Source: Styela clava (lineage: Eukaryota). From it: a DNA stretch of 64,000 nucleotides. This document shows, piece after piece, positions 7,904 through 64,000 of this stretch. The translations under genes and the position numbers were made by a program. Positions within the stretch are counted from its first letter, which is position 1. The number at the start of each line of letters is the position of its first letter. The stretch spans positions 13,206,001-13,270,000 of the forward strand of contig NC_135261.1 of assembly GCF_964204865.1 (NCBI RefSeq), given 5' to 3'. The notes under the pieces were generated by a model. The model saw only the letters and a program-made list of their open reading frames with translations, did not search any database and was not told where the DNA came from.

Positions 7904-8398
7904 CAGCAGTTCCCAAAGAGGCGATTTGCTAAGTGCGCTACGGAAATTACCAAACTTGCGTTAAACAAAACCAATATATAAATGTTTTGTTTCTTCTTTT
8001 TAAATGCGGTGAATATGAATCAATAAATTCATTTTACCTTTCTATGTCGTTTATCTTCTTTTACGCAGTCTCTGCCTCTATTGTTACGTAACAAAAGAGG
8101 TAAACAATACTTGCTGCAATTTCGCAAGCTGCAGTGTATTTATCTGCTGAACCGAGTTTAGCGAACATGAGTGATTTTTCAGCATTTCAAATAAAAAGCA
8201 CGCAGAGATGAGAAAGAAGAGTTCACTCTTTGTCTTTATTCTTTAGGCTTACATGTTAACAAACTTCAAAAAGTCAAAAGTACACATTATCAGTCATAAA
8301 ATTGAGTTTTATTTGAAGGTACTAATTTTTAGTAAGTGCGTCGTGAAAATTTTCCTGACAAGTTAGCGCCGCACGAACTAAAAATTTAGAAATCGTTT
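7904..8398. mobile_element. Decayed hAT-type MITE overlapping the lipocalin 3' UTR
   Basis: Left end CAGCAGTTCCCAAA; GTGCGC/GCGCCGC subterminal motifs near both ends; degenerate right end AAATTTAGAAATCGTT; no clean TSD. Confidence 0.35.
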
Positions 8399-8404
8399 AT
8401 TTTT

Positions 8405-10421
8405 CTATTTTCTGAAGTCAACATCGGGGCATTCCGACAATTGCAGTTGGGTAGTTGCTTGAATTTCGCTCAGCGCATTTCCAACTTGTAAAACTTCTTC
8501 CACTGATGTACTTTCAGTCGAAGTGTAAACAAGAACAACTTTTTCATCTGGAAAATTGAAGGTTACAATCTAAAATATACCCCACTCAGTCGTTAGAGCT
8601 TTAACGGCTGGTTTTTCAAGTGCTCGTTTAATTGGCACAATATTCACTAGTATAGCAAACAGAAGTTTCAACAAATGTGATTGAAACGAGCAAAAAATTT
8701 CAGACTGAAAAGACTATTATTAAGTGCGCCCAGCCCCGCACCGCACGAAGACTTTAAAATATGAATATCAATTCGTTGCTAATCCAATTGTAGAAAAAAT
8801 ATTTTGCCACTGTGAAGATATTTTTTTATTAAAACCTTTCTGGTTCGTTGTTTGTATTTATTTTTATCTCGATTCCAGTGGGAAAATGGATAATACAAAA
8901 ATTATAAACAAAATATTCACCGTCTTCTGCGTCACACAGCACGAGGATCATATAAGTGGAATAATCTGTGGCCACTGTAAGTTCTTCTTTGCCCATTCCT
9001 GTTTTTGTTGCTAAAATGCATAAAGCATTATCGTTACTGATAGTTCTTTACCTCATTTTATGTATTTAGATATTATTTAAGATCTCACCCTCAATAACAG
9101 CTTCCAAGTTATAATCTGTTGGAGTTATTTCGGAATCGGCTTCAATCGTCCCTTTTTCTCCTTGAAATTAAAAGTTTATATTAAATATATCGCTATTTCT
9201 ATTTATTACTCTGAATGTTTTCAATAGATACCTGCTCCATGATAAATAGAGGAACCATCTTGTTTTTCAGCATGAAACGTAAATCTTCGTGGATCAGCTC
9301 TGAAAGAATTTTGAGGGTAAGAATTTAAAATATAATGGCATCAGACGTAAGTTCGAGATGTCTTCTGAAATTGCGACTATAGTTTTTATGAAAATATATT
9401 TTCGTTGAAAATATTGATGAAAATAACGTCATAACGACCCCAACTTTTACATTGTGCTTTTTTAAATATATAAACGTTAGCCTAACTGTTTTAAACTGCT
9501 TTTTATTTATAGCTTTTTATAGTTTTGAGCCTCCGGCCCAGTAACTAAGTCTATGTAACTGGCCCACTCAGAAGTGTAATTGCCCTCCCCTTTTCTAATA
9601 CAATGTTGATACATCATATTTACCCGGATAAGTAGTAATTCTTGATGTAGAGTCGAAATCCATGAGTCTCAGGATTGGTAATATTTTCTATTACTTGGCA
9701 AGCTACAACGTTTGAAAAAACTTCATCAGGTGTATGAATCGTCAAATACCATCTAGGTGGCATCTAAAAAGCAATTTTATTTATTCATTTTTTCAAACTA
9801 AATTTTTTTCCTATTCCATTTATTTAAAATAAAAATGAATTTCAAATTCGAGTTTTTTTTGTAATCAACACTATCAGTATTTAGTATGCACATGAATGAA
9901 TATAACTGACAATTGCCATCCTAGTTTCATAAATCATAACAGATATAAACATGTGCATATGTATACAATAACAATCCAATATTTCACGAACAAAATAGAA
10001 ACAGAATACCAAAGAATAATGTCAAATTTTTAGCTCTTAGTTTTACGTACATTGTTCGTGGTTAAAAAATATGAGAAGAGATTTCAATCGTATTAACAAA
10101 CAAGTTTTTATGAAACTCTAATTTCTCGCGTTTTGTTCAAATTTAAGTACTTCTGATTTTTGAAAAATTTCGATAAAACAGTTCCCTTGCATGTATTAAA
10201 ATTTGTGTATATAATTCGATGAAGGTATCATAAGTTATAGATTCCAAAACAACGCCTCTTTTGTTTCTTGCTAACGTCAAAATATTAGATAACTTTACCT
10301 TGGACCAATCAATATCGTTCTTTGGCTCCTTTACATTGCATCCCAACTGGCTTCCACGTGCAGTCGCAAAATTATTTGCCACAAAAAAAACTGCTAAGGT
10401 TGCAATTATTGCAGAATACAT
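8405..10421 (-). CDS. Secreted lipocalin (calycin superfamily; apolipoprotein D-like outlier), 211 aa
   Basis: Six exons 10421-10299, 9763-9624, 9299-9232, 9160-9089, 9010-8921 and 8547-8405 (636 nt, phases 0,2,1,1,1, all GT-AG). Signal peptide MYSAIIATLAVFFVANNFATA; SCR1-like DIDWSKMPPRWY; SCR2 VATDYSTYMILVLC; C-terminal helix and Cys; four Cys in the mature chain. Confidence 0.88.
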
Positions 10422-11290
10422 ATTTAGTGCAGATGTATATATATGATGTCTGCAAGCTAATGATAAACAATAGTAAATATATTAATACAAGAAAGATGAA
10501 CAAATAGGGATTTGCTGCTTACAAACACATATGACTGAAGTTGAGTCTTCTGTTGATGGTGTAAGTCTAACCTATTCCAAACCTATGCTAAATTGTTTTC
10601 TGAGTTAAAATTCAGCTGTCAGCGCAATATAACAGATTATCCGGTTGAGATTGTCAAGCCGGATGAGGAAATTTTACAGTTGACAATTAAATGCCATTAA
10701 TTATTTTTTCAGTTTCTGTTGATGATGCGATATCGGTAAGTCTTCTGTAAATATTTAAAAAAAAAATAAAAATAAAAGTTTTTTAACATATTGCAATTAT
10801 TTTATAAAGCATTTCTCGCATTTTCTCTGGACAAGGATCTGCGCAAACCGTAGCTGATATGTTAAATATTTTATTTGAGTTTTGACCAGAATTTCTCGAA
10901 TTATTATTCCACATTGTCCCTCTAAATAAGATTGAAGCCTACGGATACGTAGTGGTCGTGATACCTGAGCAAAAAGGAAAAAATATATATATATATGGTA
11001 CAACAAAAAATTGTTGTCCAAACCCAGACGTCAAATCAAACTCTTGTGTTCCGATCTAAAACTGGCGGCAAAATTACTATTTCCGTGGGAGTGAGGGCAG
11101 ATGTTTGTTAGCTGTTTGGTGGAAGTGGTCAATGGGCCGACATATAATAGTCCGGCAGAATCGGGCCTCAACATTGTTTTGGGACATAAAGTTTTTTTTT
11201 ATTGTTTAGATATAATGTATATGACATATATAATGATACCCAGGTGGGTGTGGAGTATGTAACGTTGAGCAATTTTTTTTAAGTGGATTT

Positions 11291-18700: not shown

Positions 18701-21700
18701 CTTGTTACGTGTGAGTGCAAATCCGTTTGCACTATCTCCGTCGTTGGCAATAATTTTGGCCACTGTTGTTCCCACATAAGCATCTTCACGCATCGTTACA
18801 GTTTTAAGTGGCGTTTCTATGTTTGGCGCGTATTCATTTACGTCCAAAATAACGACAGTGATTTCTTTATTAGAACACCTAATAATAAAGTGTGAAATTA
18901 ATATAATTTACATAATTGACGTTACAGAATTTCTCAGAATCGAGATATACCAAATTGGTTATACGGCTTTTACTAATCATGAAATTATCGTGGTTGAATT
19001 TGATCTTTATGATTGAGGGAGAGGAAAAACTTCGCAAAATCTAAATCTTACCTTTGTGGGGTACCTTGATCGCAAGCTCTGATAAATATTCGATACTGAC
19101 TACAAGTCTCTCTGTCAAAAATTTCTCGAGTTTCCAAAAACCCATCCTCTGTGAGAGCAAAATGTCGGTCATTCTGGTCTGAAAGAAACACAAAAAATTA
19201 CAAGAAAGAGTTAAAAATGACGTGAGAGAGTTTAAAAAAAGGAATTTAAATAAGGAGGCCAGTTCATACCTTTGTCATTTTTGTTTCTTTTTGAGTTCGC
19301 TCGAAGTGTTGTAAGAGATACTTCAAGTTTTCCATTCTTGCCGTGATCAGAATCGCTTACTGATATCTTAGCGATATAACTCCCGTTCCCAGTGGATTCG
19401 GAAACATAAACTGCGGAAAATGTAAGAATTTACTTTATTGTACTAAATTCTATATTGTCATCTCGAGGTTTTGGTACAAAACTCACCAGTATCTTCGTCC
19501 GATTGTGATATGTAATCGGCCGTAATAACCGGCGAGTTATCGTTGATGTCTTTAACGTTGATCGTTAACCATGTCTCACCAGTTTTGGGATTTTCGGGAT
19601 CAGAATCTCTTGCTTCGATTAGTACACGAAGTCTGAATATAAAGAAATTGTATAATAAAAGTTAAGCATAAATTTTATTGCAACTTACGGCCTAATATGA
19701 TTTTAAAAGGGCTTCGAGTAGACGTCCGACTCTGAATAAAGATTAAATGGATTTTATATGTATTCCAGTAATAGGGTAGCGACCCAGCCAAAATCGATTA
19801 TGCTAGGGGTGAGCCAACTTGTTCTCTCGTAATAAAAAAATTCCTCGCGAAATTTACTTTGAATGACTTGAGAAAAATGGGCGTATAACTTTAAAAGAGA
19901 GAAACTATATATATATTGCATCAATTTGCCTACTACATTTTGAAGTATTTATTTGTATCAACTATTAACATACCCGTTATGCTTCTCCCTGTCAAGGGAC
20001 TCTCTGATCCACACTGTTCCCCGGTTTTCATCAATTCTGGCTAATTTTTGAACTAGTTTGCTGTTTCTCGTGGATATAAAATAACGAATGTGGCCGTAAA
20101 GACCGCTGTCTGGATCATGAGCTTTTAACATAGCAATTGTGGTGCCACGAGGTGCGTTTTCTTCGATGGAAATAATATACTCCTGGAAAAGGGTAAATGG
20201 ATAAATGTTAACAAAACTATAGAATTTTACTTGGACAATGTCGGCCCAAAAGTAAAATCGGCAAAACAAGCTTGTCTCTTCATTTAATTATAGAGTCAAG
20301 GTTTGCTTTGGATTTTTGGGGTGCTTTGAAGTTCTAAGAAATCAAGCCTATAAAATGAATTTACGTTTGGGATTGAAAATTTCCATATTGTGTTTTGTAT
20401 TATATTTGATTAAATTCAGAAATAAATGCTATTTGAATAAATCTTACCTCCTCCTCAAATATTGGTTGATTATCATTCACATCAATTATATTAATCACCA
20501 AGCGCATCTGTCCTGCCAATGAAGGAGCGCCCGCATCTCTGGCCCAGACGTCTAATTTAATTTCAGGAGCAGTTTCGTGATCTAAAAGTGACAAATTGAA
20601 TGAACGCACGATTATATTATGAAATTGACAGAAAATTGAATCACAAATGATTACAATTAAGCTAAAAATTTGTCACGGGTAGGGACGTTGATCAAATGGT
20701 CAAAAATTGATGTTGTTGTACTCACCAAGCTCGTCAATAACATACAGGCGAAGATGAGAAGAATTTTTATCGTCCACAAAAAATTTCAAATTGAATTGTT
20801 TGTTTTGTGTCGTAGTATATCGAAGATGAGAATTTCGGCCTGTTTATGAATAAGAAAACATGATTTAAATTATGAACTAATATAATACTATCATATTTGA
20901 ATACCTTGTGCCATATTACCATGTATTTATTGAGGCCTCGCTTCAAGAAAGTGATTCCTTACCGAAATCGTAGTCTTTAGCTTGGTACGCGTCAAGGTTT
21001 ATGACGTCACCAATTGCAGAACTTTCAGAAACATTCAACTGGAGCGTTGCTACTGGAAACGTAGGTTTGTTGTCGTTTACGTCATCAATAACGATATCCA
21101 ATTCAACCAACTTGAATGCGGCGTGTGGTAGAACCGCGATCTAGAAGCAATAAAACTTGCGTTTGTTTTAGGTGGAGAATAGGGTAAATTTTCGGGATAC
21201 TGTTATGTCAGTGCTTTCACACAGCGAAATTCGACTTACTTACAATATTGCCAAATGAGATATATTTTTACCATGAGCAGGGTTATGGGTACCGTTACAC
21301 AATACCTCAAAATTAAATGGCTTATCATATTACTACTATAGGCTTACCTGAGCTTTGATTATGCATGTTTGGACTCCAGAGCAAATTTCATCTCTATCGA
21401 AGACTTTGGCTAGTTTGACTGTACCCGTATTTCGTTCAATCTCCAGAAATTTCTCTTTGATTTTTAGATCAGTTTCGAAACCATTTGAAATTGCGTGAAC
21501 CTTTTGTGAAATTAATTTGTAGGTCCGTGAATGGCTATTCCTGCTCCCAGTAATGAGTTGCGAAACTTCAACAACGATTTCACCTGAAAGTAACAGACGA
21601 TGCCAGTGAAAAACGCGCCGAATATAGTAGTTTGTAAACAAAGAAAGATATATAATAGGTAAAAATAACTATGTGAAGTCTGGTAACGCTAATGTTGATC

Positions 21701-50921: not shown

Positions 50922-53172
50922 CTAAATTAAATGACAACCTAAATTGAGCTATCGATATTGCATCGTATTTTTTTTTTATTTGTGTAGTGCGCAGACGGAT
51001 TTAAATTCTAAAACCGAACCGTAAGCCAATAAAAATACTGAAGATGATTCACTTGACGTCGGGCCTCGTTACATACAGATATTTTATATTTAAAATACCA
51101 GAACTGTCAAAAATTAAATGCCAATACAACGTGCAAGTATCTGATTTTAAACCGCGGAAAATGTTTCAGGCGAGTACGAGACGATTACCTGGTAATGGAA
51201 GGCGTATGAAATATTGAAAAAAAAATATATATATTCTGAATATTTCTTAAAATAGGACCTAAAAAAGGAAACGTATAGAATAATTCAAGTAACATATCAT
51301 TTATGTTTTCCAATTGGGGTCACAAGCAGAGGCCTACGTTTTTGAAGTTTCAGATGCGTTTTATAAAATTAATTATGATTGAAGTCTTATAGGATATTTG
51401 GATGAAGGCTGCAGTAATTGTTACAATGTTAGTCTTAGCTATGCAACTTAAAACTTCTCGTATTCAGGTTCCATGTCCACCAACCACTTCAGTCAGTGTA
51501 ATAAATTGTGAAGTCAGTTCCCTTCCTCTCAAAATAAAGTATCTCTTCGCATAGCAGTGACTGCTTTTGCAAGATGAAATGCGTATAAAAACGTCATTTA
51601 AAATACACATAATATTTTTGTTATATATGCAACTGTTTTTTGTTGTGGCCGATTACAAATCATTCCATTGTCTATATTCCCAATAAGGTGTTTATCGATG
51701 TGATCCTCGCATTCTCAATCTTTTCTTAAACTTTTGCTGAGCGTTACATTATATTTTGTCCGGCATTGGGTTATAAAACTCGTTGACGTTTTAAGTTCAT
51801 TTGAAATCGAAGTTGTTTATCATAATTTGATATTTTTCAGTGAAATTAATACATATTGTGTATCCATAATCATTTTTGATCGTTTAAGACAATGATTCTA
51901 AATCTTTACCTACTTGTGGCACATTTTCAACACAAAAAACCTTTAAAAAAACTTCCGAGTATTATAAAAAAAAAAAATTTTCGAATTATATATAAACAAT
52001 AGCAATAGCAGGGTTTCAATGGCCACATTAACATTTTTATCAATTCATCAGTTTGTTAAGTTAAACTTCCAAACCTTGGCACAACCTCAAGCGTAAATCT
52101 TCTCTCTTTTCAATTTGTAATTGATGACGTTTCCCCGTGATCTACTGTATACCAAATGAAAGATCTAATCCGTTTCAAAATTCCTCAAAGTCTACTGGTG
52201 GGCCTGAGTGACCACTATGAGAAACACTCTTTAACAAGATAGTTCAACAATATTCGTAGAAAAATTATGGAATGTAGCAAATATGAAAAGTTTGTGATGA
52301 AGTCTGAAGCTCAACAAAAAAATCTTGCATTGTTAATTTTATTGAAAATATTCTTTGGTTTCATTGTACATTCTTTGGTTTCATTATGACTTATGCTGCA
52401 CTTCGTGATGATGACGTCAGAATTATTTTTGATCGGTAGTGCAGGTGCTCCTTAACAAATCGATTGGGCATTTCATCACCAAAATAAAATAAACACTTCC
52501 AATGTACACAAATTTGCAACTTAAATATTCGCTTTGAGCTGAGATTGCGGTTTTTATATAAAGTATAATATTACCAAATTAGATTCTTTTAAATGATTTC
52601 GATTTCTTGGAAAAATAAAAGCTTTCTTTTTGCGAAAGGGTAAAAATATCTGCATTTGTAGGCCAAACTGACGTATAACTTTTCTTTTACTGATTTCTTC
52701 TGTTAAATAATTTTAGGAGGAAAAATGAGTAATTCACTGCAATTGTGAATATATATTATATCCAATGATATGTGCGCCTTTGTTACCATTGTGACGTTCG
52801 GTACGGATGGGGCACTGTTATATTTGGTCACGAAGTGAACTTATCAATATTTTTCGATAAATTGGTTTGAAGAAAAAAACCGTCTTTTTTCATTTAAATT
52901 TATGGAGAATTGGGTTTCAAATTTTTGGTAGTTTTCTTTATTTTCTTAAATATTCCTGGGACCCGTTATTTTGTTATAAATTTTGCTGTTTCATATTGTG
53001 GATTTTCCACAATACACAAGTATTGGTCTTTTTTTTCATAAGTGTACAATTGCAAAGTGCAAAAGTAAGATACTCATCGATACACAATTCGCACGAACCT
53101 CATCTTCGTAATTCAATATTTTGATTTCTTGAAGAAAATGAAAGTTAAACTTTCATGACAACGTTTTGAAAT

Positions 53173-53284
53173 GGCGCTCCAAAAATATGTGCACCAAGAT
53201 GGTGCACAACCTGATAACCCTAAACTGGTACACATACTATGTTCAGGTTGTGCGCCATCTTGGTGCACATACTTCGGGAGCACC
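53173..53284. mobile_element. 112-bp foldback MITE with GG...CC termini and 8-bp TSD (Merlin-like)
   Basis: ~42-bp inverted arms GGCGCTCC...CACAACCTGA / TCAGGTTGTG...GGAGCACC; perfect TSD TTTGAAAT at 53165-53172 and 53285-53292. Confidence 0.8.
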
Positions 53285-53835
53285 TTTGAAATGTGGTAAA
53301 AACAATTTTTTCTCCCTCATTTAAAAAAAAGTAGAGAAAGCCAACTGTAATATTAAGTTAGAAATAGGAGTTCATTTTGAACAAATCTCTGAACCGTATT
53401 TTGACATGGCATTTTCAACTGCCCTATGAGTTGACATTATTTATGAATGATGAAATAAATCAACGTATTGTAAGTAAAAGTAATGTTATTTTTTATTAAA
53501 GCCAATTCATCATTCATTTTTAAACTTTAATTTATTTGTGCTCAAGGCCAATATTGTTTTGAGTCTGCAATTAATCTTTTTGTAGCTACTTGAACTTAGG
53601 AACGACATAATAAAACTGCCGGTATTAGAAGATCAGTTGAGAAGTTATCTAAAACCAACAGTGAGTTGTAGCAAACATATTAGCATGCATGGTCTGACAT
53701 AATCATTTGCACCATGGAGCCCTGGGGCTATGATATTGTTTGGCCACACATAATTTATTTTCAGTACTCGGAACTTAGAAAATGTTCTTTCTCTCCCTTT
53801 CATTCGTCCAAGCTAATATCTTACGAGATACACGC

Positions 53836-53899: not shown

Positions 53900-53971
53900 T
53901 ACTCTGCTAGAAGTTAAGCTTTTTGACACCAAGGTAGTTGAAGAATATTAGTTCGATTTTATTTACGTACA

Positions 53972-56900
53972 ATGGAAACGCGCTCACTACCAAGAATGAG
54001 TGTGTTTTCCGTTTTACTTCTTGCAACATGGGTTGCAGTAGGTAATGCCGGATTCGAGGATGTTGCCTCCATTGTGGGTAGGGACTACGTTATATCTTCA
54101 AGTTTTATAAGTTAGAATTTTTCATTTATAGCGCCCGAAATTTTACCAATTGTTTCGATTTCGGACTGCTCAGTTCAAAAAAAATAATAAGGTTGTCTGG
54201 CGCTAGCCTTCGAAATACATATAAATATATATTTGAATGCAAATGGAACATCTTATCACACGCTACTGAAATATTTTTAGCAAAAATTTCTTTATTGATG
54301 TTTCCATCTGTGTCTATAAAATGGTAAAATTACGACAATTCTTGACAATTAGATAAGTTTGTCTCTACTAAATCTTACATTTGAAATGTATAAGAAACAT
54401 TTTATAACTTTAATATGCTAATTACATTTACCAACTAATTTCTCAATCTTTTCATTTCCTTGTTGCTATCATGTATTTAGTGAGATCCAACTTCGCAGCG
54501 GCATGTCCGGGTGGAACGGCGGAAGTCAAATGTGAAGATCCAACGCATGTCATATATGTTGAAGATGCGTATTATGGACGAGAACGGAACGACATGTACG
54601 TATCCATAAAACCTACTTTAACAAAGATTAATAATTTCTATTCAGACTGTTGTCGGGGAGCATTATCGAGAATTTTTTTTTTCAGATGCCCGACCACGAG
54701 AATGCCCAGGCGACCATGCAAGTCTAGAACGTCTTTCGATGTTATTTGGAAGGCTTGTCAAGGCAAAAATTCATGCTCAATTCAGGCTAATCCAAGAATA
54801 ATGGGAAATGTTTGTCGTGGGGTAGATAAATATGCCTACATTGCATATCGATGCGAACTCCCAGGTATGCATATCGAAACAATGACGTTGTGTTTCATTC
54901 ATTCTCACCATTCACATTAAAAGTGCTTTAATTTGTTTATTATTTATTTATATTTAATATCTATCAAAAAGCAGTTCACTCATTATTATTATATATATAG
55001 AGACTGACCTACGTTCTATTTTATTTTATCTTTACATCTTATTTTTATTACTGGTTGGGTGCTAAATATAAAAATATGTATTCCCGAGTATTGAGCTAAA
55101 TAACTCGCTTCGAAGTTCCTAATCCATATTTATATTGGTGGAAAAAGTTGTAATTAATGGTTATGGCTATCATCCGACGAGATAGTTAGTTGATGCTTGT
55201 ATGATGATGGTGATTTAGGCAGAAGTATGATCGGAGGATGCCCCGGAACTTGGGGGGAATGGATCAACATGGACAAACCGTCATCTGGTGCGGGAGATCT
55301 AGAGACCATAACAAGGCATATGAGACAAAAACAGGGATGCAAAGAACCCATGGGAATTGACGTAAGTTGTCATCTTCATGCTTTGAAAATTCGAAACAAC
55401 CAAAGAATTTATTTAGCAGTAGTTTGCTTCGAGTAGATTGAGTGCATTAAAGAAAAACAATAGGTATACTGCTGCCTTCCTCACCTACGCATCACACTTA
55501 ACTGAATAATTTTACCATTTTATTATTGTAATTTAACGTTGAGGTGTTCATTTTATTTAGATGCGAGTCGCCAGTAATGATGAACCATACTACACAGCAG
55601 GAAACCCTGTTCGCGTAGGCTGGAGATTTGGTTTGAGTTGTCTCAATGGTTTTCAACCTGCTGGGTCTAAATGTGCTGATTTCAAAGTTCGTTATTGTTG
55701 CCCTGGAGTTGCTCCGCCAGGTATTTATAGATATTAAAACAAATTTATCGAGAATAAAATGCATTCTTCGTACACACTCTACTTGATTACCACACTGACA
55801 ATTCCCAACGTTCGTTTAGTAACTTCGTACTGTAATTTCTAGTAATGTTTAATATTTGAGTTTGAATCTTCGGCGGCACTGGGACCGGCGAAACTTTTCT
55901 AATATATATTTCATTATAATTTTAGAAGCCACTACTTGTCCTGGTTTAAAACTGCCTGCACGGGGAAGTATGACCCCTGCAAGGGCCAGAAGGCCGATGA
56001 AAATAGGAGCAACAGTCAGGTTTAGATGCAGAGGGGGATACATTATGGAAGGCTTTACATCAACATCTTGTTTAACGGGCGGAAAGTGGTCAACCGAAGT
56101 CCCGACTTGCACTAAAATCGGTAAATAATTTATTTTAATTTTTCTATTTGGGGTTCAACTGTATTACTTATTTGCTATTTTTTGATCGCCGTTTTATTAT
56201 AAAGGGGCCATCGATAGAGGTAACGTTTAAAAATTCACATTTTAAAGAATTAGCATTATTTACTGTTTTTGAAAAAGGATAATTAATGTATATACAACAT
56301 TTTTGCAGAGAAACAATCATGTATATTGGGACGCGTACCGGTCAATGGAGAGAGAAGGCCAAAATTCAGGTCGAATTTTAATTTGGGTGACAAAGTCACA
56401 TTTTCTTGTCGAAGAAATTATAAGCTATCGGGCAATAATGAGCTCATTTGTTCACCGGGAGGAACATGGAACTTGCCTGTTCCAACTTGCGAGAAGGAAG
56501 GTAAGAAACTAACCTTTCTCAAAGATTTCAATAGGACAGACAAAAAAGCCCGCTGAAAATAGCCCGTGTGTAGAATTTATGTGTCATAATTTGTGTAATT
56601 TCAATCTGCAAGTATTATAAAATTACGACTGTTCATTGCTTATTTTGCAGAAGCCAAACCACAGGGACCTAAAGGATTGACATATTGTCGCGGAATCGGT
56701 GATCCACATTACACAACATTCGATAAAAAGAAGTTCGACTTTCAAGGAGATTGTTCGTACATTTTCACAAAATACTCTGGATCTGAACACGAGAATTTCC
56801 AAGTCGAGGTATTTTCACTTTTCACTGTTCCCCGTCTGACCCGTGATCTGATGCGGTAGTTAAATTATATAACTTAAATATAATGTTGTAGGAACTTTGC

Positions 56901-59900
56901 TTATGTTAATTCTGAATTTAACTCAATTCAAGGTTATTAACATTCATCGAGGCCGCAAACTTGATGTTTCTTGGCTGGGAAGAGCCATTATTACTGTGTT
57001 TGGTCAAAAAATCAACTTCAATCCTGGACGCGAAATTCGAGTATGTTTTAGAATATTTATTCTTTCCATTTTAAGTTTATGATAAGTATATAGGCAGAAC
57101 TTTTTTCTAACACTTTTATTTAGATCCAAAAATCTTGTTTGGCAAGACGTTATGTGGTCCACTGTGACATTTCCATTTTTTTAGTTTTGACCTTTCTATG
57201 TCAATCTTATTTACCGAGTAAAAGTTTTTATTATTTGCCATGATATATTATCAGTCAGTTGAGTTCATTTTAATATTATTAATGTTTGGCGTTGAAAATA
57301 TCAAAGGTTTACTTCTTAACAGTACAATCTTCTTTTTGTATCTACTTTGTGGCTCTTCTGATTTATAGATGACTGTGTCATTAACCACCGATGTCACGTG
57401 AATCCTGTCAGGCGGCATTCTGCCCGGCGGTCAAGTTTTTAAGCGAAAATTTATTGCAACCTGTCAAGTTTATAAGTATGATACAGAATAATCCTATTAT
57501 TAAACGAACGAAAACACTTGGGTTTGCGTTTGTCGGCATGATGTCGGAATAAGAGACGCAAACTGAATTTGATTGGTTAAATAAAATGTTAGAAAGCAAA
57601 CATCTCGAGCCTTTATATAAAACAGAATCTTTGAATGCCATGACCTGATGGTCATCGAATTATATTGTGATTACTTCCGATTAACGGGGCTAACGGGATT
57701 TGCACTATTTACAAGCATATATTTATATACTTCTCATATTGAATTTAATATTATTTTACATGATATTTGAAAAGTCGAAAATCATCAGTTGGCGATTTTC
57801 GTATCATCGATCTTTTTTTTTTTGAACATTACATGTGGCCTTGATTAAAAATCCGACCTTATTATCATAACAATCCTGAAATCAACGTTAGTTTTACTTG
57901 CTTATTAGACAGAACTCAATCAATCCGACAACAACGTGCCGGTATGCATACGTGATTTGATCAATGATAGTCTGATATGGCCGCAAGGGGTGTTATGCCG
58001 GTTTGCAAAAATTCGCTGCAAAATTCGGTTTGCAGCATAATGAGTCATCCATGTTTTAGAAATTTATTAAAGTTTATGGAGACCCAAATAATTCATTACC
58101 ATTCTCAGTATACGTGTTTTGTATTCCCAAGTATATATATCAATATATGTTGGGTTCTCTTCAGTCATAAACGATCACATGTAAATAAAATGAAACCTCA
58201 ACATGCTCTTAGTTATTGATGGCTAAAACAGTAATCGCATGATTTTACCTAGCGTTAATGTCAATTAGGTTGCTTCAATCTGTGTTGAAGATTCTTGGTT
58301 GTTTTCGTCGCACCAGATTAGCGGCTTAGAATCTGATCTCTGTGGTAAACATATATCGCTATATACAGTGCATCTTGGTATAGCTAGAATTATGCCCACG
58401 GCAAGGTCGTGGTTTATACCAAAGTTTCACCTTATTGGGCTAGAGTAACAGCCACTCCCATTCTAGTTGAAATGTCGTTTGGTGGCCCAATCTGAACTTT
58501 AGAACACGTTATTGAAGTAAGTCACATTATTTGGCAGATGAATCAATTATTTTCTTCTACATTTTTCAATATTATTTCTCTTACCGAATTAAATAATTTG
58601 TTTTAATCCGCCGGCAAGACGGTATTCACTTGATGTCCAAGCTGAAAATTACTCGCAGATGTACGCGCTGCCAATGTCCTTTTCATTGCAACATTTATGT
58701 TAACGTTTTGTTGTTGATCAGAGTTGCACAAACACTAAAACGAAAATACCGCGCAAATAATAGCACGGAGGTTACTGTCACACAACACGACTTAGTAAAT
58801 TTGTGCCCATCGCAGTTAGAAGACTCTACCAAAAAAATACTTCCTGCACTTATGCCCTAACCTTTTCTATGTGTAATAAAAAATATATTCTATGTTACAG
58901 TCCTTCTATTTTATTCCATTTTCTTCATATAGACATTTGATTGAAGTGAGGCTTTCTCATGTCTTATTCAGTCTTTGATTGCCAATGTGTCCGAATTTTC
59001 AAAAGGTTTTGTCCCTCGTGGAGTCATAGTCAAGTGTACTTGGGTTCCTCGCACATATATATGTAGACATAGATTTTCCTCGATAAATTCAACCATTTTA
59101 GATTCTAATTATATAGTACAGGCGATGTTTTCTTAGATGCTTGAAAGTGAATTACCTAATGGCAAACACCAGTGTCAAGAAGCTCGGATTAACGTTTTAG
59201 ATAGTAATTAATACTTAACGTATAATTTTCAGGTCAATGGTGAAGAAGTTAATCTTCCTTTCTCGTCACCCGCCGGTTTCACAATATCTCTAAGCGGCCG
59301 ATTTGTGATTCTGGAAACGTCTTATAAACTAAAAGTTAGTTTTGATGGGCGCCACTCCCTTGCTGTCGCTGTTCCACCAGAATATTTTGGCGGAAAATTG
59401 GAAGGTAATTTGAAATTTGTTCATATGTAAACGCATTCCTATTTAATATTGGAATTTTTTTTCAATCCGAGGACAATTTTTCGTATTGCATTTTATGATA
59501 TTGTACTTTCAAAGGGAATTAAATATTTTCATATTTGAACAGTGAAGTGCTTAACATATGAATGAATTAATATATGGATGAATTAACGCAAATCAGAATT
59601 GGTGAAATTTACTGTACTTATGAAAGAAGAGTAATTGATAGTTCAAACTTGTTTATGTTTTCGAACTCTTTTTATCTGATCAAGACTACCGGTATTGATA
59701 TCTGTAATCTTGTAAAAATCGCCCGATGAGTCACATTTAATTAATGTAAGAAAATGTCACCCATAATGTTACTTTTTAAGTTGTTAATTCAATGATGCAT
59801 TATCCTTGGCCGATAACGTATTAGTGATGTCTAAATAAAAAACAAACATATCGCAAACAGTCGACTATCTGCTGTCAGGCATTAATTTGCGATGAGAGAT

Positions 59901-62900
59901 GATAATCATATTGGCTGTTGTCCAACGACAATTTCTTAAAATTTCGACAAAATAAAGTTCCTTCACGTTTGTTTGGATACAAAACAAAGCTTCTGTGGGC
60001 AATTAAGCAAGTTTTTATGAGAAACTAAATTGTCTATTGCAACAGTAAAAAAAAGAAATTTTATTTTATTTTATGGGGAATCTCATCGGGTTCTTGTTTA
60101 ATAATATAATACAGACACGAATTTTGCCCGGAAGCTATAATTTCCGTCCAAGTGTTTAAGCTGTTCAGGACTGGTATAAATGTTTCGAATTAGAATGTAA
60201 ATCATCCACGGACCATGAAAAAAAACGAATACACTTGTATTACACAGTTTATAAAAATAAGTAGAACATGAAAGGCTTGTGAAGGGATTTTCTCATTTCA
60301 ATCTCGACCAAAAATGTTAGAAAATATTAAAAAGATAACTTTGTTGTAGCGGAAGAGTTTACAAACCTGTCATAATTATGTTTCATGTTTATTCAAATTC
60401 TCAGGCTTGTGTGGAAACTTTGACGGAGATGAGAACAACGATATCGTCGTCGACGGTGTCGAAAACCCAAACGCTCACGGAAACAGACACATCACTGACA
60501 CTAAAACCGAGTAAACATTTTTGCGAGTTTGATAAGATGAGATAAGAGTTTTACAGACATTTCTTGCTTCCTCAACTGGTTTAGCTAGTTTTTTTTGTAT
60601 TAGAAGATAGTCACGCATAGTTCAAATAAACCAACAGTGTAGGCCACTCCCTATGAACAATTTTGTTGGTTCAGTCTGAACGGTAAAAGAGATTGCAAGT
60701 GTATCCTATTAAATATAAGTTTCTGTTATAATAATAATAAACAGTTTATATTTAACGTTCGGACTTGAATATTAATTAATTTCTCTCCGCTCTCAGTTGC
60801 ATCAGAGAAGATCTTAAAGACAGTGAATGCTCCAAAACTGGGGCGTCAGCAAGATTCAGAGCAAGATGCGCTGTTATTACTGAGGTTGGAGGCGTATTCT
60901 CCGCTTGTCACGCGGTAATAACCGCGCAAACCTTCTTCGAGGTAAGAAAGCTGTGTGATACCTTAAATCTTATTTTGATAGCATTCCAGTAGGCCCACAT
61001 ATAGTGATTTTTCCTGTGCTCTTTCATCACGACGCAAGTCCTAAGTGCGGGTCGACAAGCTGCGTTAAACTACTAGAACTACATGCCTTTTTAAAATGGT
61101 ATTACAATCAATTCATTTCGTCACAATCAGGATTGTATATTCGATGTCTGCGTGTACGGTGGAGCTGACGTAGCGCTTGAGAATGCCGTTGCTGCCTACG
61201 CTGAAGCTTGTAATGACGCGGGAGTAAGAATCGGAAAATGGAGAGAAGTAACAAAAACACGTAAGAGCAACGTATATCCTCAATAATTTCAGCTACTGAA
61301 TGATAAAAATCAGCTACTAAATGATAAATCTGATTGTATTATAGTCTTTCCTACTGGGCAAGATGTTTTTCTTTCAACTATCTCGCCAGTCGCACTGGGT
61401 TTTACAGACAATAGGCGCTATTTTCAATATACAAGTCAATGCATTTCTAAATGATTGACCACCACCATGGTACCTAAGCAAAAGTTTTTAAGTGTATTCA
61501 TTTTTGTTCATTTACCCCTTATTTTACAGCGCTACCATGTCCTGCCAATGCTCGTTACGAGTTGTGTGCAACAAAATGTCCCGCTACCTGTTCAGATCCG
61601 TCACCTAAATGTGCTTCTGGATGCGTTGAAGGTAGGTTCATACCATTTAAAGGAAGCTAATGTAAATGCAGTTGATAGAAAATATCGGCGTTATTAATCT
61701 TGCTCGTTTTATCAGTATCATGTCCAATCATAATATAAATTACGAGTATGTTGATATATTCATAGGTTGCGTGTGTAATAACGGATTCGTTCTATCTGGT
61801 AACCAATGCGTAAGGCGATCAAAATGTGGCTGCACATTTGAAGGAAAATACTACTTGGTAAGTTGCAGATTATGTTTTGATATCGTATACAATATAATAA
61901 AATAAGTTTAATCAATGATAATGTGTAATAAAAGTACCAGATCATAGGCTGTGAACCCAAAAGACAGAAGCATTGTAAAAACTATTGATAGAATAAAAAA
62001 TTAAGCAACGCAATAGATTTTGATTTTTCCTATGCATTTTCTGTGCGGGGGCCTTGTTATCTTTATTTAAACTAAAGTAGTATACTCCTGAAAGACAATT
62101 TGTAATACATAATATTCCCAAATCTTGTTTGATATTTGTCAAAATGAGAAAACGGCTAATACGTAGGTATCATTCTGAATTCGAGAAAATTTGAAAAAGT
62201 AATGCCTACTGATTTGACTTCTGTCCAAACGTGTTCGTCTGGTTGTGAACTTCGCGTACTTGATATTGTGGGTGCTGAATTTTGATTGCAGAGAACGACA
62301 GTTCACTGCTTTATATGTATTATACAAGTTTACCGACACTCGCTGAAGAATTTTTCATAATTCTTTATTTTTATCACTAGAACGGACAAACAATTTTGAC
62401 AAACGGATGTACTCGTCGATGCACATGCAGAGCTCAAGGGATGGTTTGCATGGATGTTAAATGCAAAGCTAGACAGACGTGTGGCAAAAACGAAAAAGGC
62501 CGAGAAGCGTGTCAGGCAACTGGTATTTGCATATTTGTTTCTACTTTTTGTTGAGTTTGAGTGATATTGCAAAACTCCAAGCTTTTTTCAATATTATTTA
62601 TAGAAAATAATACTCGATTAGTGTATAGACACGGTGCAAAAGATATTTTCCCGGATTTCTGAATATATAAAACGAAAAGAGTAAAATGTTTCACTGAATC
62701 TTCTGGTAAAGAAGCAAATTCATAAAATACGCATATGCCTTGAACTAGAATGTTTTTAGAAATGTGCATTCAAAATCACACGACCAACCACGGATTTTGG
62801 TAACCAGCGGTGTAATAGCCAGTGTCTTTGTAAAACTTGGTTCTATTGGCAAACCTTGATCATACAAAGTCTATGTATATGTAATAGAAACACTTTTAAA

Positions 62901-63855
62901 AGTTTGGCCGAAACATTGAAAACGAATTTTGATTTAATCGCCTATATTGTCTCTTTAATAATTCAGAAACTGCAAGATGTCGAATTATGGGAGGTTCTCA
63001 ATACAATCTTTTCGATAAAGTTGGGATCCAGAGGTTTAATGGAAAATGTAGCTACAGGTTGGCAGAATCTTGTGGTCTTGCTGAAGATGACGAAAGCTGG
63101 TTCTCAGTGTATATCAAGAATGAGGAACGACGAAATCGAAAGAACAAAGCCTACGTTAACAGTGTAACTGTTAAACTCGGACAAAACATCGAAGTTACGT
63201 TGATGAAAGGTGGTATGGCCATGGTAAGTATTACTATTTGTTGAATCTTGTTATTTACCGATTTTTTTATAATATATGGTGTGAAATTGTTTCAGGTAAA
63301 TAATCGTCGGGTGAGAGCAGTTCAGAATGATATGTTTAGCATAAGACGAAGAGGCAGAGGAGCAATAGTTCTCAATACCATGCATTCTTTGAGAGTTCGA
63401 CTAAACAACAACGGTGTTCTTGTCAGAGTTCCAAGTACATATATGGGACAGGTAACCATTAGATCTTTTACAACCCTCTCTCTTTGTTTCCCCACTTCGT
63501 GTTCTTACTTTTCATCATCATCACCCTCTTTTTTCTCTCTTTTACTTTGTCATTTTTACTTTCGTCCCCTAACTTTTTATAGTGTTTCCCCAATATTGAC
63601 CCCCATCCTTTCTATATCATTCTCATTTATTTATTCATATTTTTGGCCTTGTTATTGTTTTAATATCTATGTCATTTTATTCAAGATGTGCGGGTTATGT
63701 GGAAATTATAACAAAGACCCAACAGATGACATGCAGATGTCTGATGGTAGCATGGCTGAGGACTTTAATGAATTTGGTCTCAGTCACGAAGTGGAGAGCT
63801 GTGGTGAACCGATTCCAGATCCCGTTACTTGCACAGACGACATGAGAGCTAAATG
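53972..63855 (+). CDS. Large secreted FCGBP/zonadhesin/mucin-like mosaic protein (SUEL lectin-CysD/WxxW-2xSushi-VWD-C8-TIL-TILa-VWD...); 5' part only, continues past the window
   Basis: 19 exons with consistent phases: 53972-54077, 54481-54595, 54686-54864, 55219-55361, 55561-55720, 55926-56120, 56309-56500, 56651-56808, 56933-57040, 59233-59404, 60405-60510, 60797-60941, 61131-61260, 61530-61631, 61766-61857, 62381-62522, 62967-63223, 63296-63451, 63686-63855 (ends on donor GTGAGA). Motifs: signal peptide; AYYGR...C.GVDKY (SUEL); WGEW...GDLET...VRYCC (CysD); two C..P...C..GY/NY...C...G.W...PTC (Sushi); GDPHYTTFD...GLCGNFDG (VWD1); FSACH...AYAEAC...WR (C8); TIL; CGLCGNYN (VWD2). Confidence 0.93.
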
Positions 63856-64000
63856 GTGAGAAGCGGTTTGATATAATTTGTCTTCCTGAATGAATATGGA
63901 ATTTTTTTCGATATAGCATCAACTAATGATTTTTTTACTTGTGTCTGGTGGAAGCATTAACACCAGCTTATTGTTTTTCTTTTATTTGGAGTAAATGATT

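Follow-up and report, generated by a model that had tools for sequence, protein, structure and literature searches.

A lectin-type, probably self-cleaving VWD head in Styela clava very probably forms the N-terminus of the giant EGF-rich protein reported as its thyroid-hormone precursor

An old idea holds that thyroid hormones arose when mucus or structural proteins of the endostyle became iodinated. In the ascidian Styela clava, Zhang et al. (2026; PMC12992692) reported a thyroid-hormone precursor, ScTG-like (Sc.CG.S284.31, XP_039253271.1), whose locus they put forward as the invertebrate thyroglobulin so far missing, screening other phyla for a 'large, Tg1-rich' signature. The protein was localized to endostyle zones 7-9 and to an anterior larval pit that is open to the tunic, in-vitro iodination of a recombinant Tg1-enriched segment gave a T3-antibody signal, and siRNA against ScTG-like lowers T3 and T4 and delays metamorphosis, which T3 rescues, while in the IP of the same study ScTG-like is seventh of ten by iBAQ (PMC12992692). 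The data for the hormone role come from this one paper and from antibody detection.

The chemistry of self-cleaving VWDs is described in other proteins. The GDPH cut falls between strands b1 and b2 of the VWD, requires the Asp and the His and is helped by a Gln 14 residues further on, after which b1 stays attached via a disulfide and hydrogen bonds, and cleavage raises resistance to proteases and heat, stabilizing the domain (PMC10880436). The GDPH of MUC2 remained uncut in one recombinant host (PMC10880436), and hence the motif alone is not proof of cleavage. A possible redox sensitivity has been tied, speculatively, to the thioredoxin-like CxxC of the CGLC motif (PMC8267560). A lectin and a self-cleaving VWD of the GDPH type occur together in the sea-star proteins Sfp1 and Sfp2, whose subunits are disulfide-linked (PMC9382459, PMC12817120). 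VWD-lectin proteins also occur in the Oikopleura house, one of whose proteins, Oikosin 30, contains VWD (PMC3390340).

The window analyzed here is a stretch of 64,000 nucleotides of Styela clava (G000:C16, 13206001-13270000), and positions beyond it are given as extended coordinates (C16 position minus 13206000). A 19-exon model that runs from 53972 to 63855 has a stop-free conceptual product of 942 aa, and the features are as follows.

53972..54077, plus strand: exon 1, start codon and signal peptide (contigs begin at 53907-53927)
54481..54864, plus strand: SUEL-type domain, 8 Cys (exons 54481-54595, 54686-54864)
55219..55720, plus strand: WxxW/CysD-type domain, 6 Cys (exons 55219-55361, 55561-55720)
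55926..56120, plus strand: Sushi 1, basic, pI ~10.2 (Pfam)
56309..56500, plus strand: Sushi 2, basic, pI ~9.4 (Pfam)
56651..60510, plus strand: VWD1 (exons 56651-56808, 56933-57040, 59233-59404, 60405-60510)
56686..56709, plus strand: C376 and GDPH, predicted Asp381/Pro382 autocleavage (sequence compared with PMC10880436)
60410..60412, plus strand: C512 in EGLC, putative disulfide partner of C376 (sequence)
60797..62522, plus strand: C8, TIL and TILa of D assembly 1 (Pfam and contigs)
62967..63855, plus strand: VWD2, without GDPH and with CGLC (exons 62967-63223, 63296-63451, 63686-63855)
63856..64000, plus strand: intron through which the gene exits the window (gene model)

The ATG at 53972 opens a hydrophobic leader, and scans of the head exons with Pfam match SUEL_Lectin (E 3.4e-13), Mucin2_WxxW with both half-exons (E 4.1e-5 and 2.4e-6), two Sushi domains (E 8.6e-10 and 2e-12) and, after the Sushi pair, a VWD (E 5.8e-10); VWD-C8-TIL-TILa and a second VWD are also recovered in the window. 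By leader and Pfam, the signal peptide, SUEL, two Sushi and GDPH-bearing VWD named in an initial annotation of this DNA are thus all present, and its mucin CysD stands as a WxxW/CysD-type domain, but one with 6 Cys where a mucin CysD has 10. The CRGIGDPH that it described as intact in VWD1 is found at aa 376-383 (GDPH codons at 56698-56709), and the borders that it placed in phase 1 are in that phase at all five module junctions of the head, from signal peptide through SUEL, WxxW, Sushi and Sushi to VWD, the introns inside modules being of phase 2 (SUEL) and phase 0 (WxxW). Its picture of an exon-shuffled mucus- or matrix-type protein with a tethered head is supported, and the gene probably encodes such a secreted protein, the head of which would be cleaved and yet held by a disulfide.

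According to exon modelling and Pfam/HMM scans, the gene extends ~74 kb beyond the window, with these features.

Extended 64075-81813, plus strand: rest of D assembly 2 and 36 Arg/Tyr/Gly-rich EGF (exon model)
Extended 71030 (L001:7030), plus strand: published ScTG-like ATG, within an EGF exon (sequence mapping)
Extended 82073-132529, plus strand: ten thyroglobulin-1 (Tg1), three TIL and ~89 EGF (exon model/HMM)
Extended 132797-137870, plus strand: four Sushi, five EGF, a 438-aa Gly/Gln/Pro tract, TIL and stop (exon model)
Extended 138047, plus strand: AATAAA (sequence)

Phase 1-1 gave the best score in 127 of 143 module exons, and joining in that phase was stop-free in 141 of the 143. The concatenated model is 8,675 aa long, and because it leaves out two exons (no GT donor in the scan) and the tenth Tg1, which was found by HMM, the full protein is estimated at about 8,800 aa and 0.95 MDa, with module totals of 130 EGF, 10 Tg1 (PF00086 matches), two D assemblies and one GDPH. 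In the Gly/Gln/Pro tract, Gly accounts for 32% of residues, Gln for 31% and Pro for 12%. No PTS tract, cystine knot, cholinesterase-like end or transmembrane segment was found in the gene model, hydrophobic peaks beyond the leader coming only from over-extended acceptors in the transmembrane check, and assignment of the EGFs to the calcium-binding (fibrillin-type) class was rejected, the consensus occurring in 0 of 129. The first EGF block is divergent and can be called old (median nearest-neighbour similarity 0.65; 0 of 31 exons with a neighbour at 95% or above), and its EGFs are therefore too divergent to be collapsed in contig assembly. Blocks 2 and 3 consist of recent duplicates (nearest-neighbour similarity 0.98-0.99), and hence EGF copy number in the later blocks is uncertain and may vary by assembly or allele. 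EGF exons contribute 333 of the 413 tyrosines, whereas the 8 modelled Tg1 exons contribute 28. One EGF exon (extended 109465-109600, L005) has an apparent GC donor.

The transcript data are assembled contigs from four runs (X1, X2, X3, X5) of two studies, presumed to be of RNA although none of the matching runs listed is recorded as such. Three runs labelled with the same species share almost no sequence words with the gene, which is no measure of its expression. Across the head-VWD stretch they cover exons rather than introns, GT..AG is seen at 15 of the 15 joints listed (of 20), and all 15 are on single contigs in X1, X2 and X5, as are 12 of the 15 in run X3. Because the listed joints lie together on single contigs, the head and VWD region are one transcript, rather than being split between separate cDNAs, the outcome named beforehand as contrary to the annotation. 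A contig of X5 (8,171 nt, depth 25.1) runs from 53927 to extended 80864 (record position 8,084), to which point a 55-exon model measures 8,081 nt against the 8,084 of the contig; a NAGNAG acceptor, consistent with the published ScTG-like peptide, supplies the missing 3 nt to give a base-exact match. Two acceptors of this model had been reset, one from a contig joint and one from P0157 (the RefSeq protein discussed below), the automatic model having earlier been 63 nt longer. Contigs of X1 and X2 extend across the published ATG as far as the second Tg1, and another contig joint connects the third Tg1 with the next EGF block, while three joints that are non-canonical or run backwards are read as misplacements among similar EGF exons. 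The contigs show one spliced transcript that begins with the signal exon, passes the published start and continues into the Tg1 domains; beyond extended 83.9 kb, continuity is provided by modelling, two contig joints and the published model.

The search for relatives of the D assemblies covered proteins of 767-2,442 aa, and 120 of its 316 matches were listed. Vertebrate FCGBP, zonadhesin and alpha-tectorin have the VWD-C8-TIL-TILa units in common with this protein (28-37% identity in the matches listed), as well as the GDPH chemistry, and the best PDB match is FCGBP; in contrast to them, it has two D assemblies and a huge EGF/Tg1 body, and is without FCGBP_N, MAM, NIDO, ZP or a transmembrane segment. 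Among the 119 other matches listed (of 316), the FCGBP, zonadhesin and tectorin proteins of vertebrates are all without WxxW and SUEL, in line with the earlier claim that these proteins lack the head combination. Among 150 listed of 541 HMMER matches, VWD occurs alongside SUEL only in P0023 (Acanthaster) and P0128 (Ylistrum, a scallop), and the WxxW/Sushi part in none; a word-based search for SUEL homologues gave no match, and leads from the ESM Atlas were confined to generic EGF and VWD proteins below 0.9. With P0023, P0128 and, as far as they are described in the sources cited above, Sfp1 and Sfp2, the protein shares secretion and the set of Gal-lectin/SUEL, VWD-C8-TIL and EGF, but P0023 and P0128 are without WxxW, Sushi and Tg1, EGFs are few in these relatives, Sfp1 has several cleavage sites where this protein has one, and likeness to the Sfp1-type adhesives is confined to the module set. 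A lectin with a self-cleaving VWD is an architecture known before, from sea-star Sfp1 and Sfp2, and one also present in the Acanthaster and scallop proteins, whereas the SUEL-WxxW-Sushi-VWD head is undescribed in the literature searched (subscription papers and figure images aside). Modules and cleavage chemistry alike are familiar; what that literature did not yield is the architecture as a whole and its connection to the reported hormone precursor.

Membership was rejected for FCGBP, for the gel-forming mucins and for zonadhesin or tectorin. For FCGBP, PF17517 is absent, the N-terminal exons being SUEL, WxxW and Sushi, and the 8,675-aa model has two VWD-C8-TIL assemblies and one GDPH against a long series, most with GDPH, such that the FCGBP-like VWD body first proposed reduces to two D assemblies followed by the giant EGF/Tg1 part. 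A quick tree of 49 VWDs groups them without resolution, with VWD2 as a long branch. A gel-forming mucin does not fit a maximum of 18 S+T per 100 aa, two D assemblies instead of three and a TIL end instead of a cystine knot, and zonadhesin or tectorin does not fit the absence of MAM, NIDO and ZP from the Pfam scans (16 window stretches, 17 of 19 exons). The endostyle gene that the supplement of PMC9953650 lists as 'zonadhesin-like' encodes another protein, not this one. Vertebrate thyroglobulin is likewise large and secreted, with multiple Tg1 and a reported hormonogenic role, but the present protein is ~3x longer, its Tg1 domains make up <10% of the chain and are central, and it ends in Sushi-EGF-TIL rather than ChEL. 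It has 0 CxxCPxG (the Tg2 motif), and its first Tg1 comes after 36 EGFs instead of after the signal peptide; multiple Tg1 (the 10 PF00086 matches) is the sole thyroglobulin feature present among those checked by sequence. In P0214 (Clavelina), the VWDs alternate like the pair of this gene, with xGLCG lacking the first Cys and a one-residue insertion after FD, a pattern hinting at a tunicate D-assembly doublet.

There is little doubt that the head in the window is the N-terminus of ScTG-like. Nine published Tg1 sequences match exons of the gene with 0-2 differences each (by-eye comparison), and both siRNA targets (L011:559 and L011:3773), the N-terminal EGFs and the antibody epitope given in PMC12992692 also map to the locus. 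The published 'full-length' protein of 5,790 aa (against ~6,730 aa for the equivalent span in the present model) starts at an ATG that falls within the final 10 nt of an internal EGF exon, at about residue 1,950 of that model and after 18 EGFs, and its start is missing a signal peptide; what it lacks is the ~1,950 N-terminal residues that comprise signal peptide, SUEL, WxxW, two Sushi, two D assemblies and 18 EGF. The qPCR primers of that paper (L001:5367 and L001:5833-5853) lie 1.2-1.7 kb 5' of its own ATG, and this upstream amplicon drops with both downstream siRNAs (PMC12992692). The paper counts 9 Tg1 where 10 are found here and states Tg1 domains only, VWD and, for this protein, EGF domains being unmentioned in its text, supplements and preprint and a lectin in its main text (figures were outside this check), and by its primers, read by eye, its first iodinated 'Tg1 cluster' appears to include EGFs. 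RefSeq XP_039253313.1 ('zonadhesin-like', P0157) is 99% identical and holds WxxW-Sushi2-D1-D2 and the first EGFs, without signal peptide, SUEL and 32 aa of VWD1, and ends early at a frameshift where the frame stays open here. Because contigs bridge the published start and the primers lie 5' of it, the 'zonadhesin-like' and ScTG-like models are fragments of one gene. That they are instead separate products, of two genes or of an internal promoter, would agree with the split between the public models and with the inability of contigs to show transcript starts, but it is most improbable given contigs from three runs and two studies that cross the boundary, the open frame at the site of the RefSeq frameshift, and a published start that has no signal peptide and lies at the very end of an internal EGF exon.

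Conserved in VWD1 are D381, H383, the helper Q395 (D+14) and C398 (D+17), as in FCGBP D10, and the C376/C512 pair is also present. Because D381, H383, Q395 and the cysteines are conserved, autocleavage at Asp381/Pro382 is likely, and would, in the model, yield a 39-kDa head and a ~0.9 MDa fragment. Of the proposed tether, both cysteines are there, but C512 is in EGLC, not CGLC, and falls outside the stretch to which the annotation had been applied; CGLC occurs only in VWD2, which has no GDPH. The idea of a redox-releasable head is weakened because VWD1 is missing the CxxC and cleavage between b1 and b2 stabilizes the fold, and the cut is read as maturation rather than release. The primary site of the SUEL lectin CSL3 consists of Glu7, Tyr27, Asn74, Asp79, Gly83 and Lys86 (PMC3269628), and the alignment equivalents here are Pro45, Tyr67, Pro110, Asn115, Gly119 and Lys122, so that Tyr, Gly and Lys are kept and Glu, Asn and Asp lost. 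The 150 listed of 541 HMMER matches contain 355 SUEL domains, of which 280 have the Glu, 241 the Asn and 305 the Asp, and all three are absent in only 18 of 353 homologous domains of the matches listed; the Glu7 equivalent is also missing in three paralogue heads (read by eye). Since all three ligands are replaced, canonical rhamnose/galactose binding by the head is doubtful. With 52 K+R to 32 D+E, the head carries a basic excess that would fit docking on proteins or polyanions.

The function first proposed, that of a head which recognizes glycans, can be released by reduction and serves to capture microbes, would draw on a complete 8-Cys SUEL fold (Pfam, alignment) with the Tyr, Gly and Lys of the site, on the single GDPH with its single putative tether disulfide, and on the published speculation that such tethers are redox-sensitive (PMC8267560); with the Glu7, Asn74 and Asp79 equivalents all altered, as in few homologues, Glu absent from the paralogue heads too, no CxxC, a hydrogen-bonded b1 and a domain that cleavage stabilizes, it is very unlikely. 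The best reading, and a reasonably probable one, is a secreted EGF/VWD matrix scaffold, self-cleaved but intact, iodinated and hormone-storing, for which the location and hormone data are those of PMC12992692. The product predicted for the whole gene is a secreted scaffold of ~8,800 aa that, by homology, would be cut once at the GDPH (Asp381/Pro382) during secretion and would keep its 39-kDa head through strand b1 in the VWD sandwich and the C376-C512 disulfide. The tyrosine-rich EGF rod would be the source of most iodination sites, the D assemblies may keep the protein packed for storage, the head, basic and degenerate in its sugar site, may dock on proteins or polyanions, and the Gly/Gln/Pro tract may confer elasticity. 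Hormone-making here likely rides on a secreted matrix protein and not on a true thyroglobulin. The main alternative, conceivable if unlikely, is that this gene product works chiefly as a fibre for cohesion or adhesion, or of the tunic or mucus net (compare Sfp1-4 and mussel mfp-2), its iodination being incidental and the knock-down reflecting a lost iodoprotein pool or settlement secretion. The 130 Arg/Tyr/Gly-rich EGFs that give no calcium-binding match, the Gly/Gln/Pro tract and the lectin with VWD-C8-TIL point that way, as do the module set and disulfide-linked subunits of Sfp1/2 and the EGF arrays of Sfp3/4 (PMC9382459, PMC12817120), the house protein Oikosin 30 (PMC3390340), and expression that is highest in hatched larvae and juveniles, together with the anterior position of the pit, open to the tunic (PMC12992692). 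T3 rescue, the loss of the T3 signal in the pit and location in the thyroid-equivalent zones 7-9 argue against it (PMC12992692).

A more far-reaching reading, offered tentatively, is that the sole experimentally supported invertebrate thyroid-hormone precursor belongs, at ~1 MDa, to an ascidian family of VWD-EGF fibres of mucus/adhesive type and is no relative of thyroglobulin, with its hormone tyrosines on the EGF rod, and with D assemblies and a self-cleaved head that would store and anchor it as a colloid. If true, a living animal would exemplify how thyroid hormone can be made on a matrix protein of the endostyle, and the thyroglobulin of vertebrates would be a separate, later solution. 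The idea of an origin in endostyle iodination also becomes directly testable on a named protein, ScTG-like. The signal peptide and the ~1,950 restored residues explain how ScTG-like can be secreted, a mostly-EGF protein with mucin/FCGBP-type D assemblies changes the set of homologues that can be counted, and the unique N-terminal domains can be used for orthologue searches, antibodies and knock-outs.

At least three other genes of Styela clava begin with the SUEL-WxxW-Sushi cassette, two VWD genes on C16 and one on C4, and, judged by sequence, this is an ascidian gene family built by phase-1 exon shuffling. On the minus strand of C16, from 19784559 to ~19672000 (L019, L020, L033, L034; ends only), the head is accompanied by GDPH-VWDs, related 'CQPNPC' EGFs and many more VWD matches, and the upstream neighbour of this paralogue has a Sushi-EGF-TIL end, as in the ScTG-like gene. 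The second C16 paralogue (17756400-17739000, minus strand; L013-L015) is SUEL-WxxW-Sushi-VWD-VWD-EGF/Sushi, and its VWDs are without GDPH, which makes it a natural non-cleaving control. On C4 (13132683-13121000, minus strand; L021, L022) the head precedes a CILP-like body (Pfam CILP E 3.8e-4, below the cut-off). A second giant gene, on C1 (15976000-16031000, plus strand; L038-L044), combines 43 EGF matches with two GDPH-VWDs, 3 Tg1, 4 Sushi and TIL, and its product may correspond to a further Tg1 protein of the pull-down described in PMC12992692. Elsewhere in the window, two frames at 51402-51554 (plus strand) and 10143-10481 (minus strand) have signal-peptide-like starts and no Pfam match, 21339-21668 (minus strand) is a protocadherin-type N-terminal cadherin exon (Cadherin_2, E 1.5e-5), and a short palindromic high-copy repeat at 53159-53299, ~0.7 kb 5' of the ATG, is matched by hundreds of contigs.
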